Source: a virus
Direction: 5' to 3' (one strand)
DNA: 64,000 nucleotides
IMG/VR virus record: IMGVR_UViG_3300035698_010154
Coordinates: 1 to 64,000 of that record
Positions within the stretch are counted from its first letter, which is position 1. The number at the start of each line of letters is the position of its first letter. Shown in pieces: positions 9,772 to 46,295 of the stretch. The notes under the pieces were generated by a model, which saw only the letters and a list, made by a program, of their open reading frames with translations, did not search any database and was not told the origin of the DNA. Both the position numbers and the translations under genes were made by a program.

Positions 9772-11775
9772 ATGGCAATGAACTGGAAATTTTGGGATAA
9801 CAAACCAGAACAAATAGATGAAGAGATCAAAGCCTTCAAAGAAAAACCAACACCTACAATAAAAGATATTATATCCACTAGAGGTGAGGGTTGGGAATCA
9901 GTACAAGATATCCCAGGTGTTGGCCAGATTGGTCTTCAATCATTTAATATGTTCTATGACTCTTATATAAACAGAGTGTTCGAGAATGAACAACAAAGAA
10001 TTGAAGAGTATAGAGGTATGGCCATATTGCCAGAAGTTGGTGATGTAATTGAAGATGCGGTAAATGAGTCAACTCAAGAAGATGAGGTTGGTGACATTGT
10101 GCATCTAAACATATTAGATCCCAATCTTGAAAAGAATGAAAACATAGTAAAGAACATATCTGACGAATTCAAAGAGTTGTTTGAAAACAGAGTTGACTTA
10201 TATGATCTGTTATGGGATATGATAAAAACATATTATATTGATGGGCGCGTATTTTTTGAAAAGATCATAGATACAAGACATCCAAAGAATGGAATAATAG
10301 GTCTGAAAAAGTTACCCACAGAGACAATGGATTATGTTTATGACCCTTTATCTGGTAAGAATATAGCATACTTTCAATACCTTCAACCCAAAACAAAAAA
10401 ACCATCCACAATAGAAGAAGCTAAACAAAGGGATGGCAAAGATCTAATATATTTTGAACCACGGCAAATAGGGTTTATAAATCATGGTATTTATGGGAAA
10501 ACAAAGTATGAGATATTCGGGTACTTGGAGAAATCAAGAGTACCATATAATCAACTAAAACTCCTTGAAACATCGGTTATCATTTATAGAATAATAAGAG
10601 CACCTGAGAGATTAGTATTTAGGGTTGATACAGGTAACATGCCCCGTGATAAAGCATTGAAGTATGTTGAAAAGATCAAACAAAAAGTAACCAAGAAGCA
10701 ATCATATGATCCAGCTACAGGGCAGATAACCAATGATCCTAATGTATTTTGTATAAGAAAAAATACAGAAATACCTTTACTAGATGGAAGATATTTAACT
10801 CTTAAAGAAGTTATTGATGAGTATAATATGGGGAAAGAAAACTGGGTATATTCTATAAACGAAAAAACACATAATGTAGAACCAGGTAAAATAACCAATG
10901 CCGCAATAACAAGACCAAACGAAAAACTCATAAGAGTATGGATGGAAAACGAATATATAGATACTACTTATGATCATAAATTTATACTGAGAGATGGATC
11001 AAAATGTAGAGCAGATGAATTAAAAGTTGATGAATCATTAATGCCTTTATATAAAAAACAATCTCTTATTAGGATAACTAAAATAGAATATCTAAATGAA
11101 AGAGATGATACTGGATGTATAACAGTAGAAGGAAATCATAATTTTGCAGTAAGTCAACAAGGGAAATCGTTGGTATTTATACAAAATTCCATTTTAGAGA
11201 ATTACTGGCTGCCTCAAAGTGCCGATGGTCGTGGTAGTCAAATTGAATCTGTCGGTGGTAGTAACATTGGATTCACAGAGCTAGACGATGTTCATTACTT
11301 CCAGAAAAAATTATACAGAGCTTTGAAATATCCACAATCAAGAGTGAACGCATCACAACAAAATCAAGATAGCGATATAATGTTTGGTCAAGGCCAAACA
11401 GGAGATATAAGTAGAGATGAAATAAAATGGGCCAAGTTCCTTGAAAGACAACAACTTAAATTTAGTAAAGAACTTACTAAAGTATTTCTACTACACCTTG
11501 AATTCAAAGGACTCAAAAAACAATATGATCTTAATGAAAAGAAAATAAAAATATCATTGAACCCACCTTCAAAATATAAGGAACAAATGGAAGCGAATTT
11601 CACAGATACAAGATTCAATCTATATAACTCTCTAGCAGATAGAGAAGAGATTTCGAAATACTATATGATGAAGAAATATTTGAGATGGAGTGAAGAAGAG
11701 ATAAATAAAAATGTTGAAGGTATGAAAAAAGATATAGAACTCGGCTTAAGAAAATCAGATGATGATGGATATTAA
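9772..11775 (+). CDS. gp20: Portal vertex protein (T4 gp20) with intein
   Basis: YRIIRAPERLVFRVDTGNMP..KA..Y, ENYWLP...GRGSQI, YFQKKLYRALK.P.SR, ISRDEIK. Confidence 0.95.
   Translation: MAMNWKFWDNKPEQIDEEIKAFKEKPTPTIKDIISTRGEGWESVQDIPGVGQIGLQSFNMFYDSYINRVFENEQQRIEEYRGMAILPEVGDVIEDAVNESTQEDEVGDIVHLNILDPNLEKNENIVKNISDEFKELFENRVDLYDLLWDMIKTYYIDGRVFFEKIIDTRHPKNGIIGLKKLPTETMDYVYDPLSGKNIAYFQYLQPKTKKPSTIEEAKQRDGKDLIYFEPRQIGFINHGIYGKTKYEIFGYLEKSRVPYNQLKLLETSVIIYRIIRAPERLVFRVDTGNMPRDKALKYVEKIKQKVTKKQSYDPATGQITNDPNVFCIRKNTEIPLLDGRYLTLKEVIDEYNMGKENWVYSINEKTHNVEPGKITNAAITRPNEKLIRVWMENEYIDTTYDHKFILRDGSKCRADELKVDESLMPLYKKQSLIRITKIEYLNERDDTGCITVEGNHNFAVSQQGKSLVFIQNSILENYWLPQSADGRGSQIESVGGSNIGFTELDDVHYFQKKLYRALKYPQSRVNASQQNQDSDIMFGQGQTGDISRDEIKWAKFLERQQLKFSKELTKVFLLHLEFKGLKKQYDLNEKKIKISLNPPSKYKEQMEANFTDTRFNLYNSLADREEISKYYMMKKYLRWSEEEINKNVEGMKKDIELGLRKSDDDGY
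10750..11187 (+). mobile_element. Mini-intein (146 aa) in portal
   Basis: NVF|CIRKNTEIPLLDG...TTYDHKF...HNFAV...FIQN|SILENYWLP; no endonuclease domain; Gln-Asn end. Confidence 0.9.
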
Positions 11776-41190: not shown

Positions 41191-41199
41191 AGGATGTGT

Positions 41200-42186
41200 A
41201 TGAAGAAAATTGTGATGTTAGGAGACACACATCTCGGAATATACAATGATTCCGAGGTGTGGCATAATGTAACAAAAACATTATTCAAAGAAATTCATGA
41301 CTATTGTATAAAGAACGATATTGATACTATAATCCATGGCGGAGATTTTTTTCATAATCGTAAATCCACCAATACCAAGACATTAAACACCGCGCTAGAA
41401 ATAGCCGAAATACTCTCACCACTCAAAGTTAACATAATCGTAGGCAATCACGATACCTTTTTTAAAAATAAAATCCAACCAAATTCATTACAAATATTTC
41501 AAAAACATAATAATATAACAATAATAGATAAACCAATAAAAATTAATGACATTCTATTAGTTCCGTGGAACGCAGATTTTAATGATATTGAAGCAAAGTA
41601 TTGTTTCGGCCACTTTGCCATCAATGGATTCAATATGAATGATAACTATGTTTGTGATAAAGGATTAAAAGCATCAATTTTCAATAAATTTGAATTAACA
41701 TTTTCATCACATTTTCATTTACCCTCAAGGCAAAAAAATATAATATATCTTGGTTCACCACTTCAGCAGACATTCAATGATGTTGGTGGTGAAAGAGGGT
41801 ATTATACATTTGACAATGGTGATTTAGAATTTATAGAGTTCACTAAATATCCTCACTTCATAAAGGTGAACGCTAATGACAAGATATCAAAGGAGGTGGT
41901 GAGTGGTAACATAGTACGACTTATATTCACAGAGGACTATGGTGAAGGTAAGAATCAGCAAATAGTAGATAGTGTACTAAGCAAGACACCACTGCAATTG
42001 CACGTGGACTTCAAAATATCAAAAGAGGATTCTGACAAATACCAAGGAGAGGTAGACATTGGTATGCTAGACCACAGCGAGGTTATGGTAAGCTATATAT
42101 CGGATTATGAAACACCTAAGCACATTAATAATGCAGTACTAACTAAAATGATGTTAAAATTTAAAGAAGAGGCTCATGACTTATGA
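41200..42186 (+). CDS. gp47: Recombination endonuclease subunit (T4 gp47/SbcD/Mre11)
   Basis: GDTHLG, GGDFF.NR, VGNHD, GHF, SHFH, YLGSP. Confidence 0.92.
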   Translation: MKKIVMLGDTHLGIYNDSEVWHNVTKTLFKEIHDYCIKNDIDTIIHGGDFFHNRKSTNTKTLNTALEIAEILSPLKVNIIVGNHDTFFKNKIQPNSLQIFQKHNNITIIDKPIKINDILLVPWNADFNDIEAKYCFGHFAINGFNMNDNYVCDKGLKASIFNKFELTFSSHFHLPSRQKNIIYLGSPLQQTFNDVGGERGYYTFDNGDLEFIEFTKYPHFIKVNANDKISKEVVSGNIVRLIFTEDYGEGKNQQIVDSVLSKTPLQLHVDFKISKEDSDKYQGEVDIGMLDHSEVMVSYISDYETPKHINNAVLTKMMLKFKEEAHDL

Positions 42187-42365: not shown

Positions 42366-42716
42366 ATGGCTATAGCAACAGAATCAACATCATGGAGCAA
42401 TGGATTTGTTCAATGGACAGACCCAGCAACAGAATCAACATCATGGAGCAATTCATTTTCTGATGGATTTGTTCAATGGACGGACCCAGCACAAGAACTA
42501 CGTGATGAACTAAACAAAAATAAGAAACACATAGATTTTCTGTATAGAATAATCTATAAGCTTATGACTGATATCGTTATGAGGGTTGATATAACAATTA
42601 GTGATTCTTTAAAAGCCGAGTTACGGATCATGTTCAAACAAATTGATCACCTTGAGGGTAAGGAAAATTTGCCAGAAGATGATGGTTTTATAAAAAGTAA
42701 AGAAATGATGATATGA
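42366..42716 (+). CDS. Hypothetical protein with internal duplication
   Basis: ATESTSWSN..GFVQWTDPA twice. Confidence 0.6.
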   Translation: MAIATESTSWSNGFVQWTDPATESTSWSNSFSDGFVQWTDPAQELRDELNKNKKHIDFLYRIIYKLMTDIVMRVDITISDSLKAELRIMFKQIDHLEGKENLPEDDGFIKSKEMMI

Positions 42717-43249: not shown

Positions 43250-43482
43250 TGGAGTTCTTATTAGGATGCTCGGTACTGTTCTTAAAGGCAACAGTTGGCA
43301 TGGCAATAATAACTACAATATCTTGTCTGATATTAATGTGTGTTATGTTTATATGTTACTTAATTAAATGTGAGAAAAATGATTGACCAGACTATCCTAT
43401 TTCCTCCTACTTTATATGATGGTTTGGGGCAAGGTGGTGTACGTCCATACACTGCCTTGCCAACTATAAAAGGTGTGTATAA

Positions 43483-43698
43483 ATGAAACTAGAAATTGAA
43501 TCTGTAGAATTAAAAAACTTCCTATCTTATGGAAGTCGAGTTCAGAAGATACCCTTCCTAAAGGGATTAAATCTTGTTACGGGTATCGACCTGGATCGCA
43601 AGAGGAGTAATGGATCCGGCAAATGTGTGAGAGCTGATACTCTTATAGAGATTGAGTCTACAGAAAAAATAATAAAAATTTTAAAAGAATACAAATAG
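43483..43698 (+). CDS. gp46: gp46/SbcC N-extein (47 aa) fused to split-intein N-part (24 aa)
   Basis: KNFLSYG...GLNLVTG...SNGSGK|CVRADTLIEI...*. Confidence 0.9.
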   Translation: MKLEIESVELKNFLSYGSRVQKIPFLKGLNLVTGIDLDRKRSNGSGKCVRADTLIEIESTEKIIKILKEYK

Positions 43699-43720
43699 CT
43701 ATAGTAAGGAGGCTATTTGT

Positions 43721-43902
43721 ATGACTAAGATTTATCCAACAGAACAAGGTAAATGTTTGTATATGGAGCATACTAACACTATATATTAACAATAAGAATT
43801 GATCACTTAAAAAAAGTGGATATAATAGTATGGGAAGATGATTGGACAAATAATAAAGAATTGGTGATAAAAGAATGTTGTGTGAAATTGGAAAAGTTGT
43901 AA
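43721..43902 (+). pseudogene. Decayed Vsr/PD-(D/E)xK-like homing endonuclease remnant
   Basis: AGGAGG + ATG 43721 (22-aa stub); downstream frame RIDHLKK...IIVWEDDWTNNKELVIKEC, LKKSGYN in an adjacent frame. Confidence 0.55.
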
Positions 43903-46295
43903 GATTATATAAAGAGCATCCAGAGTATAAAGGACAAATTTTTGTAAATACTCCTTATGGTATGAGACAAATAATTGATGCCGATGTTATTGAAAAAAAT
44001 TCCGAACAATTCAGGCTAGTAACAGAATCGTTTGAATTATTTGGATCTGGACTTCATAGAGTAAAATGTAATGACAATTGGAGATACTTAAAAGATATAC
44101 AAAAATGGGATTCTGTCAATACCATAAATGGTGAAGAAACAATACAAGAGTGTTATAAAATAGATGAAAAATGTGATCTATATGATATACAGGTAGAGGG
44201 TGTTAAACAATATTACTCTAATGGTATATTATCACACAACTCTTCATTTTTAGAATCCGTGCCTTTCGCCTTGTTCGGTCAAGTACATAGGAACATCAAT
44301 AAGAAGCAAATTGTCAACTGGAAGAACCGGAAGCATTGTGAAGTCTCGCTTGATTTCAGAGTAGGTGAAGATCAGTACAGAGTATCAAGAGCCATCAAGC
44401 CTGATAATTTTGAGATATACAAGAACTCAAATTTAATAGACAAGCCTTCTCATGTAAAAGAGTATCAAGCCCAACTGGAAGAGATAATTGGTCTAAATTA
44501 TAAAACATTCATGTCTCTTATCCACTCTAACATCAACTCATCGGCTAAAATATTGACAATGGGTAAGCCCGAGAAAAGAAAACTCATAGATATGATGTTC
44601 GGATTGACTGTGTATAAGGATATCTCTGACCTTGCAAACAAGAAACTGAGAGTCATAACCGAGAAACTGAGAGAGATAGAACTCACTGGCTCTTCAAACA
44701 CAGACAGGATAAGTGATCTAAAGAGTACAGTAGATGATCTTGAGTACAGGGCCTCAAAGAAACCAATTCAGTATACTCAACTCAAAGAGAAAGAAGAAGA
44801 GCTTGAAGAGCTGAACGAGATTATGGATGAGTCCAAAGAGGAGTTAGAGAATAAAAGGACTCTACTAGCTGGTGAAGAGAGTACACTAAAGTATCTTGAA
44901 GGCATAATAGTCAATGTAGACAACTCGGGATATAAGCTTGGCTTGAAGTTAAAGAATATAGATGAATTACTGCTGAAGTCCGTTGATGTCGAGAGGATCA
45001 AGAAAGACAACAAACAATATAATGAATCATTAGATTTGTTGAAAACAGAGTTTGGTTCACTAGATGAGATAGAGTTAAAGTTGAATAGTAAGAGAAAGGA
45101 AATATCTGAACTTGAGATAGAGATTGGTACTATAAAGAATAGTCTTGATACATTAGAGAGTGAAATGACAAGGCTTAAGAGAGACAAGATCAAATCGGCT
45201 GCCAAACTTGAGAAACTTGAATCGGATATATGCCCAACGTGTAATCAAAAGATAGCCGATGATTCGTTATTGAAAGAAGAGCGAAAGAAGATGAAAGTTG
45301 TTGATCTAAAGATGGAAAAGGTTAACGAGAAATCACTTCGACTCAATAATGGGCAACTAAAAAATAAACTAACTCTACCAAAGCTGAGTGGCACAGAGAA
45401 TACACTTGATGATGTTTATAAACAGATGATTCATATAGGCAATCATATAGTGAATGTTGACTTCTCAGATAACGTAGATGAACTGAAAAGCAATAAGACA
45501 AGGTATGAACGAACTAATGAAAAACTGAGTAGCCTACATAAGAGCCTTAGTACTGATAAGTTCGATGTAGGCAAAACCATATCATTGTTGACAGAGAGGG
45601 TTGAGGAACTACAGAAAAGAGTATCAAAGGTATATGATCTTGAGCAAGAAATAGTCAAGTTACAGGAATTCATAGAGTTGGAGCGGAAGAACCAACTAGA
45701 ACTAAAAACACTCATAGACTCAAACAAGAAAAAGATTGCAACCCTGAATAAGAACACAAGTGAGTCAGTCAAAAAGAGCGAAACATTGATGAACTTGAAG
45801 AACTATGTATCATGTATAAAGGATATATGCAAGGATGAGAATATAAAACAGTATGCCATATCATCCGTTATGCCTTATATCAATGAACGAGCTAATCACT
45901 ACCTGTCAAAAGTTAACTACTCATTCTATGTTATGTTAGATAAGTGGTTAGAAATGGAAGTAAAGGGCCCTGGTATAGTTAATGCATCCTATGGGTCGCT
46001 GTCAGGTGGCGAATCGAGAGGAATTGATATAGCGATACAATTAGCATTCCTTGATGTGTCGAAATTGAGAGCCAGCATATTTCCTGACTTTTTGACATTA
46101 GATGAGTTATTGGATTCTTCAATTGATAGTGGTGGCATCTCACAACTGTTTAAGATCATAAGCTTGAAACAAAAGAAGGACGATTCAAAAACTTTCATCA
46201 TTTCCCACAGGAGTGAGCTAGATGATGCCGATTTAATTGATAATGTTTATCACGTATCAAAGCGTAATGGTTACTCAACTGTGGAAATAAGATAA
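43875..46295 (+). CDS. gp46: Split-intein C-part (122 aa) fused to gp46/SbcC/Rad50 C-extein
   Basis: SGLHRV (block B), LYDIQV...YYSNGILSHN|SSFLE; coiled coil, CPTC zinc hook, LSGGE, LTLDE, ISH. Confidence 0.92.
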   Translation: MLCEIGKVVRLYKEHPEYKGQIFVNTPYGMRQIIDADVIEKNSEQFRLVTESFELFGSGLHRVKCNDNWRYLKDIQKWDSVNTINGEETIQECYKIDEKCDLYDIQVEGVKQYYSNGILSHNSSFLESVPFALFGQVHRNINKKQIVNWKNRKHCEVSLDFRVGEDQYRVSRAIKPDNFEIYKNSNLIDKPSHVKEYQAQLEEIIGLNYKTFMSLIHSNINSSAKILTMGKPEKRKLIDMMFGLTVYKDISDLANKKLRVITEKLREIELTGSSNTDRISDLKSTVDDLEYRASKKPIQYTQLKEKEEELEELNEIMDESKEELENKRTLLAGEESTLKYLEGIIVNVDNSGYKLGLKLKNIDELLLKSVDVERIKKDNKQYNESLDLLKTEFGSLDEIELKLNSKRKEISELEIEIGTIKNSLDTLESEMTRLKRDKIKSAAKLEKLESDICPTCNQKIADDSLLKEERKKMKVVDLKMEKVNEKSLRLNNGQLKNKLTLPKLSGTENTLDDVYKQMIHIGNHIVNVDFSDNVDELKSNKTRYERTNEKLSSLHKSLSTDKFDVGKTISLLTERVEELQKRVSKVYDLEQEIVKLQEFIELERKNQLELKTLIDSNKKKIATLNKNTSESVKKSETLMNLKNYVSCIKDICKDENIKQYAISSVMPYINERANHYLSKVNYSFYVMLDKWLEMEVKGPGIVNASYGSLSGGESRGIDIAIQLAFLDVSKLRASIFPDFLTLDELLDSSIDSGGISQLFKIISLKQKKDDSKTFIISHRSELDDADLIDNVYHVSKRNGYSTVEIR

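Follow-up and report, generated by a model that had tools for sequence, protein, structure and literature searches.

The window analysed here is the first 64 kb (64,000 nucleotides) of the 76.8-kb IMG/VR virus record IMGVR_UViG_3300035698_010154, which comes from an uncultured salt-lake phage and has an estimated completeness of 32%. At positions 43483-46295 the window carries a gp46 (Rad50/SbcC-like) gene that is divided between two open reading frames (ORFs). Both ORFs and all the features of the interrupted region described below lie on the plus strand. ORF1 (43483-43698, 71 aa) consists of a 47-aa gp46 N-extein (43483-43623) ending in the first half of the Walker A motif (NGSGK), a 24-aa N-terminal intein part (IntN, 43624-43695) and a TAG stop codon (43696-43698). 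After a spacer of 176 bp (43699-43874), ORF2 (43875-46295, 806 aa) opens in a different frame with a 122-aa C-terminal intein part (IntC, 43875-44240) and continues as the 684-aa gp46 C-extein (44241-46295), whose first residue, Ser+1, starts the second half of Walker A. This extein begins at S123-SFLES, i.e. SSFLESVPFALFG..., directly after the IntC end ...YYSNGILSHN. Judging from its sequence, the element is a class 1 intein in the Walker A motif of gp46 that is split naturally and in an atypical way, its N-part being the short one. Sequence comparison and modelling together indicate that this is very probably a fractured gp46 gene whose products are joined by protein trans-splicing.

The two exteins fit together without a gap. 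In the PHROG SbcC-like profile phrog_77, residues 1-47 of ORF1 aligned with positions 294-333 and residues 123-804 of ORF2 with positions 334-953 (C-extein E 1.5e-82). Since these positions abut exactly, no gp46 residue is missing or duplicated across the split. A profile of 13 N-part ORFs matched the N-termini of Rad50/SMC proteins as far as GK and solved Rad50 chains up to their residue 37, and the Rad50 chains 5f3w and 3aux matched the C-extein from their residue 39. All the features of a Rad50/SbcC/T4 gp46 ABC ATPase were found: Walker A, a CPTC zinc hook (CxxC) within the coiled coil (45231-45242), the LSGGE signature (45999-46013), the Walker B D-E pair (46101-46106), the H-loop ISHRS (46200-46214) and, nearby, a gp47 (Mre11-like) metallophosphoesterase gene (41194-42186). 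In the syntenic viral contig L001, gp46 is one uninterrupted, intein-less protein of 731 aa, which is 89% identical to the N-extein and 72% identical to the C-extein of the window and reads NGSGK/SSLLES. Because of this reading, the element can be placed exactly between the Lys and the Ser of Walker A. Many other intein-less proteins of ca. 731 aa turned up in the searches. The Lys/Ser pair of Walker A in P-loop ATPases is a classic intein insertion site (PMC4760082).

IntN, CVRADTLIEIESTEKIIKILKEYK, begins with Cys1 (Cys48 of ORF1) directly after NGSGK and contains block A (CVxxxTxIxI) followed by a predicted helix. In an alignment of 13 loci, position 1 of the N-part was Cys or Ser in all 13, and Thr6 was invariant. 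IntC contains S58-G-L-H61 (block B), D-L-Y-D104-I-Q-V (block F) and S-H121-N122 (block G); among 17 aligned sequences H61, D104, H121 and N122 were invariant, and Ser at +1 was conserved. The class 1 catalytic set is complete here, comprising Cys1, the His of block B, the Asp of block F, the His-Asn pair and Ser+1. The intein gp41-1 uses the same pair of Cys1 and Ser+1. IntC alone matched the Pfam family Intein_splicing (PF14890) weakly (E 8e-4, below the cut-off), and it was ca. 30% identical to the contiguous mini-intein that Klebsiella and Salmonella phages carry in their terminase. The profile of the 17-member family matched six solved inteins at E-values from 1e-13 to 1e-8. The best PDB match was the gp41-1 intein (6qaz, E 7.7e-14), followed by the C-part of the consensus atypical intein Cat (CatC, 6dsl_B; E 2.8e-13), which was aligned over almost its full length, and by VidaL (6vgv, E 7.7e-13); PolB16 (4.6e-06) and NrdJ-1 were also matched.

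The original prediction, made from the letters of the window, had already proposed a naturally, atypically split intein within the gp46 Walker A motif. The exact insertion, the catalytic set, the profile matches, at least 13 loci of the same layout and a model of the complex (see below) all bear this out. Its ORF coordinates, 24-aa IntN, TAG, 176-bp spacer and frame change were reproduced; the zinc hook, LSGGE and Walker B were all located in ORF2, and the block B SGLH, LYDIQV and SHN followed by SSFLE were found as it had described. It had also singled out the Ser+1 nucleophile. Ser+1 is indeed present, but the combination of Cys1 with Ser+1 is ordinary for inteins.

At least 13 other viral loci, which come from more than 12 different metagenomes, had the same two-ORF layout (L004, L006-L010, L012-L014, L016, L017, L019 and L020). 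Their upstream ORF ends with ...G-x-G-K/C(or S)V-x-x-x-T-x-I-x-I..., in which 23-58 residues and a stop follow the conserved Lys. Two further loci (L021 and L022) showed no N-part ORF in the 3 kb that precede the IntC ORF. The searches also gave many proteins that start with IntC and continue with divergent SbcC-like sequence. When 1.84 billion representative proteins were scanned, 136 matches at E ≤ 1e-10 were obtained; among the best 58 intein-bearing matches of these 136, ca. 38 start with IntC, as expected of split forms, and ca. 20 carry IntC at residue 48 or later, which is where contiguous alleles have it. The internal-IntC proteins that were fetched turned out to be contiguous mini-intein alleles at the same site, such as P0045 (GHGK/CVRKDT...SHN/ST). 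When ORF1 and IntC were aligned with the contiguous protein P0061, only 2 of its residues were left uncovered, so that IntN and IntC together amount to a complete mini-intein. The break falls in a loop whose length among the contiguous forms ranges between 2 and ca. 70 residues.

IntC of the window was 61.5% identical to that of L004, while the C-exteins of the two were 38.9% identical. The closest relative by extein, L001 (72%), has no intein, and the closest intein-bearing relative was ca. 40-60% identical in protein, a distance that would saturate the synonymous sites. The GC content of the element was 28.4% versus 36.6% for the exteins. Because the IntC sequences are more alike than the exteins, the closest extein relative is intein-less and the GC content differs, these data fit either a horizontal spread of an intein-endonuclease unit among divergent gp46 genes or its precise loss in close relatives. 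Within the family, the members with Cys1 and Ser+1 have an IntN of 23-40 aa. A sub-family (L012, L013, which equals L015 and L018, L014 and L016) has Ser1 and Ser+1, with no cysteine nucleophile at the splice junctions; its IntN is 53-58 aa long, and the endonuclease gene in its gap is larger (352-471 aa). In two contiguous alleles, P0041 (802 aa) and P0047 (742 aa), 26-70 additional residues lie precisely in the loop that is interrupted in the split alleles, so this loop evidently tolerates insertions.

The gap between the two ORFs of the relatives is 355-1496 bp long and contains, on the same strand, an ORF of 337-471 aa that has YWxxKGYSEEEA-like repeats and a C-terminal nuclease domain. 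Most two-ORF relatives carry a free-standing Vsr/DUF559-like homing-endonuclease gene of 1-1.5 kb there, and such a gene is present in L004, L009, L010, L012-L014, L016, L017 and L020. The L004 and L008 endonucleases passed the Pfam cut-off for DUF559 and also matched REase_MTES_1575, both of which we take to be Vsr-like folds of the PD-(D/E)xK type. In the window, only a remnant of such a gene lies between the intein halves. A tblastn search located the C-terminal ca. 35 codons and the stop of a free-standing Vsr/DUF559-like homing-endonuclease gene at 43795-43902: the stretch 43822-43896 shared 68% identity with the 25 C-terminal aa of the L004 endonuclease (E 3.8e-10), and 43795-43896 was 51% identical over 37 aa to the L008 copy (E 1.2e-9). 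In a DNA alignment, the 3' end of the remnant, with its stop, overlaps the ATG of IntC in another frame, exactly as in L004 and L008. A search of the phage's own genome with the endonuclease found the remnant at E 2.5e-7, and no second endonuclease copy was present anywhere in the record. The length and position of the spacer had been given correctly by the original prediction, but its identity, shown by the tblastn matches and the overlap, had been missed. Because the remnant is present here and the intact gene in relatives, the window appears to hold a post-endonuclease derivative of a fractured locus.

The decay of the endonuclease raises the question of whether the intein halves are relics as well. 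If the fractured gp46 were non-functional, the phage would either do without gp46 or use a host or second copy; the clear decay of the endonuclease in the window and the low completeness of the record speak for this. Yet the two reading frames are unbroken through all their 71 and 806 codons, and all the catalytic intein residues and ATPase motifs are kept. In addition, the gap endonuclease is broken into two ORFs in two relatives (L007:1946-3005 and L019:2016-2974), and only its last 105 codons are left in a third (L008:2708-3025), and in all three the intein halves are intact. Intact halves beside a decayed nuclease are what one would expect under selection that maintains the intein but not the nuclease. 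A decaying locus is therefore improbable, and it appears from these sequences that the nuclease is being lost while the split intein is kept.

A split of this kind might also be an artefact (a mis-assembly of a contiguous intein gene or a frameshift error in one), or the halves might be joined at the nucleic-acid level by an intron, translational bypass or stop-codon recoding; in favour of this, the same intein does occur elsewhere in contiguous form. Parts of the gp46 region were present in five salt-lake metagenome runs, and Logan contigs from four runs matched it with 0 mismatches and 0 gaps, leaving 43956-44160 uncovered. A single 280-nt contig (43643-43922) spans the TAG, the entire spacer and the IntC ATG, and three further contigs from other runs reach across the TAG and most of the spacer. 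Both the TAG and the spacer were thus letter-for-letter identical in contigs of four runs, and this exact repetition makes a mis-assembly or a frameshift very unlikely. A blastn comparison of the region with 50,697 phage records gave no match. As for joining at the nucleic-acid level, a search of Rfam with 43300-44400 found no family, introns included. The in-frame codons after the TAG of ORF1 are CTA TAG TAA, so that readthrough would run into two further stops, TAG and TAA, within 3 codons and would not lengthen ORF1. Moreover, the spacer is homologous to the 3' end of an endonuclease gene and not to an intein, and the gaps of the relatives hold a separate gene. An artefact or nucleic-acid-level joining is thus largely refuted and has hardly any probability left.

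The association of the two halves was assessed with a model of the IntN/IntC complex. The model scored 0.74 in all three runs, and the best of three controls scored 0.01; 58 of 80 solved complexes reached the mark used, as did 2 of 110 mismatched pairs. The runs shared at least 88% of their contacts, and the pLDDT (predicted local distance difference test) of the partner was 71. Contacts were modelled between residues 46-60, 63-64, 66-67 and 70 of ORF1 and residues 1-11, 21-25, 55-62, 100-105 and 113-121 of IntC, of which 1-11 and 21-25 are strands and 55-62 correspond to block B, 100-105 to block F and 113-121 to block G. Split-intein complexes similar to this pair have been solved, and part of the pass may be due to that likeness. 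The model supports a binding of IntN to IntC. As it speaks for association and not for chemistry, it would also agree with an assembly without ligation, in which the intein halves serve only as a high-affinity dimerisation handle and the gp46 pieces work as a non-covalent complex, resembling the fragmented NrdA of phage Aeh1 (PMC3045599). In such a complex, however, ca. 146 intein residues would hang in the nucleotide-binding loop, since the P-loop is broken after its Lys and before its Ser. Binding alone, furthermore, needs none of the family-conserved residues Cys1, block B His, block F Asp, His-Asn and Ser+1. Assembly without ligation is hence quite improbable. With the break inside the P-loop and every splicing residue conserved, ligation is the most economical reading.

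Based on these results, we propose that the locus arose and works as described below. An ancestral mini-intein would have resided in the Walker A loop of a phage Rad50/SbcC-like ATPase, with the Lys before it and the Ser after it. A Vsr/DUF559-like homing-endonuclease gene would then have been inserted in the variable loop after the first intein helix, splitting the gene. In the window phage, the endonuclease gene would later have been lost except for ca. 35 C-terminal codons, which may persist on account of their overlap with the start of IntC, whose ribosome-binding site they carry. Two proteins would be produced, gp46N-IntN of 71 aa and IntC-gp46C of 806 aa, and the 24-aa IntN would dock as a beta-strand and a helix into the incomplete HINT fold of IntC. 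Cys1 would form a thioester, which Ser+1 would attack; Asn122 would cyclise, and a 731-aa gp46 with an intact GSGKSS P-loop would be released to act with gp47. Trans-splicing that yields this 731-aa product of ca. 84 kDa is probable.

Several points weigh against this reading. Splicing is something we infer for this locus and for every member of the gp46 family, as are the expression and association of the two halves. Block B reads SGLH here and SPxH in most relatives. The depth of the independent runs is low (2-3x), one of the runs is possibly the source sample, and the four runs may derive from one sampling campaign. At a completeness of 32%, a second, intact gp46 is possible elsewhere in the genome.

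Atypically split inteins of the AceL-TerL type were reportedly described by Thiel 2014 and by Bachmann & Mootz 2015, to whom reviews refer. In PMC13014065 and PMC11766414, AceL-TerL, GOS-TerL and the consensus Cat (PDB 6dsl) are presented as atypically split inteins of phage large terminases (TerL). Their IntN and IntC sizes are 25 + 104, 37 + 115 and 30 + 104, respectively (PMC11766414), and the break of the TerL type, termed 'S2', lies after helix alpha1 (PMC13014065). The gp46 intein resembles them in having a short IntN (24 aa versus 25, 37 and 30) and a long IntC, and it is also broken after the first helix, i.e. at 'S2'. Its family profile aligns from position 13 to CatC residue 8 (E 2.8e-13). 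As with AceL-TerL and GOS-TerL, its source is phage or saline-lake metagenome DNA, and it shares Cys1 as the first nucleophile with AceL-TerL. In contrast, its host site is the gp46/Rad50 P-loop instead of TerL, its +1 residue is Ser instead of Cys, and it is known from sequence alone. The TerL-type IntC of the same genome is ca. 33-36% identical to the gp46 IntC. Membership in the AceL-TerL/GOS-TerL allele was ruled out, as the host protein and the site differ.

VidaL (PDB 6vgv/6vgw) and PolB16 OarG (8cpn) are also atypically split, with an IntN of 16 and 15 aa (PMC10189870, PMC13014065). They share the short IntN and the profile similarity with the gp46 intein, but they are broken one element earlier, after strand beta2 ('S1'), and have other host proteins. 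The best-matching gp41-1 likewise comes from a phage fractured gene; it differs in its helicase host and its canonical split, in which the IntN is long and the IntC short. With 24 + 122 aa and its break on the N-terminal side, the gp46 intein falls within the short-IntN type (IntN of ca. 15-37 aa with a long IntC).

The arrangement of the locus resembles the fractured genes of Dassa, London, Stoddard, Schueler-Furman and Pietrokovski 2009 (PMC2677866). In both cases, two same-strand ORFs each combine an extein part with an intein half, a phage DNA-metabolism enzyme is the host, and a free-standing Vsr-like endonuclease gene lies between the halves, here in the relatives. From their sequences, the gap nucleases of the relatives are taken to be of that same endonuclease type. 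Two differences are that the inteins of that study, with one exception, are broken at the canonical endonuclease-insertion site whereas that of gp46 is broken near the N-terminus, and that the endonuclease is reduced to a remnant in the window. The same study also reports one locus without an endonuclease and an SbcD-like gene fractured without an intein (PMC2677866). Its text contains no occurrence of gp46, Rad50 or SbcC, and the main text of an intein survey (PMC4760082) does not mention Rad50 or SbcC. No paper on an intein in gp46, Rad50 or SbcC was found in the literature, in a search that left the metagenomic lists of Burton 2020 and Sekar 2022 outside its scope. The element, which belongs to a widespread family, is thus of a known kind, a fractured gene in a post-endonuclease state, and not a new mechanism, in a host protein that is apparently undescribed as such.

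With three further inteins beside that of gp46, the 77-kb phage fragment carries four in all. One of the three is, like that of gp46, atypically split and interrupts the large terminase gene at L003:437-2604, which corresponds to ca. 63915-66082 of the record, just outside the window. The TerL-N ORF ends with ...NQEFN/CVTGDTYIDV..., providing an IntN of 33 aa, and is followed by a gap of ca. 188 bp; the TerL-C ORF opens with a 109-aa IntC ending ...NNIISHN/CQFIGS. This IntC matched CatC (6dsl_B) at E 1.2e-15 and was 36% identical to the gp46 IntC. A 72-aa ORF across the gap (L003:1302-1520), which had no Pfam match, is suspected to be a helix-turn-helix remnant of an endonuclease. The portal protein ORF (9772-11775; phrog_213, E 3.5e-95) contains a contiguous 146-aa mini-intein at 10750-11187 (...DPNVF/CIRKNTEI...VFIQN/SILEN) that scored above the cut-off of Pfam Intein_splicing. 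The fourth is a 366-aa intein at 56178-57275 with a LAGLIDADG-like motif (LIKGDGF), which apparently uses Ser1 (AH/SVVGNTPI) and Thr+1 (VVCHN/TNQ); it resides in an ORF of 1021 aa (55257-58322) encoding an AAA-type P-loop protein (phrog_22605) that looked PrkA-like. The original prediction had considered the gp46 locus singly; its intein there stands, but the large family, the contiguous alleles and the co-resident TerL split intein had escaped it.

Split inteins with a short IntN are scarce and prized for protein semisynthesis, as their N-part can be synthesised chemically; reviews name AceL-TerL, GOS-TerL, VidaL and PolB16 as the characterised natural ones (PMC13014065). The gp46 family would add a large untapped set to these, including members with Cys1/Ser+1 and with Ser1/Ser+1. 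There is a reasonable prospect that the gp46 element is a candidate new orthogonal intein, and the presence of two different atypically split inteins in one genome suggests a ready-made test of orthogonality. The family also displays what looks like a life cycle, from contiguous mini-inteins through genes fractured with an endonuclease and those with a broken endonuclease to near-complete loss, as in the window, where the endonuclease is nearly gone and the split intein would be left obligatory. A bolder idea, which we regard as rather unlikely, is that the intein is more than a stranded parasite, that the gp46 and TerL pairs are orthogonal in vivo and that splicing serves as a salt, temperature or redox switch timing recombination-dependent replication. 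If this were true, the family would supply a new orthogonal short-IntN set, including the Ser1/Ser+1 members (L012-L016).

Some minor features were also noted around the gp46 gene. The spacer contains a Shine-Dalgarno-like AAGGAGG (43706-43712), followed by a 22-codon ORF (43721-43789) that is possibly the old endonuclease start; compared with the endonuclease N-termini of the relatives, it gave no significant match. A promoter-like TTGATC-16-TATAAT at 43799-43826 in the spacer is a lead only, as promoter-like sites were not enriched over shuffled sequences (7 versus 4.4 ± 1.9). Between the gp47-like and gp46 genes lies a small ORF (42366-42716) with an internal direct repeat, in which ATESTSWSNGFVQWTDPA... 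occurs twice.

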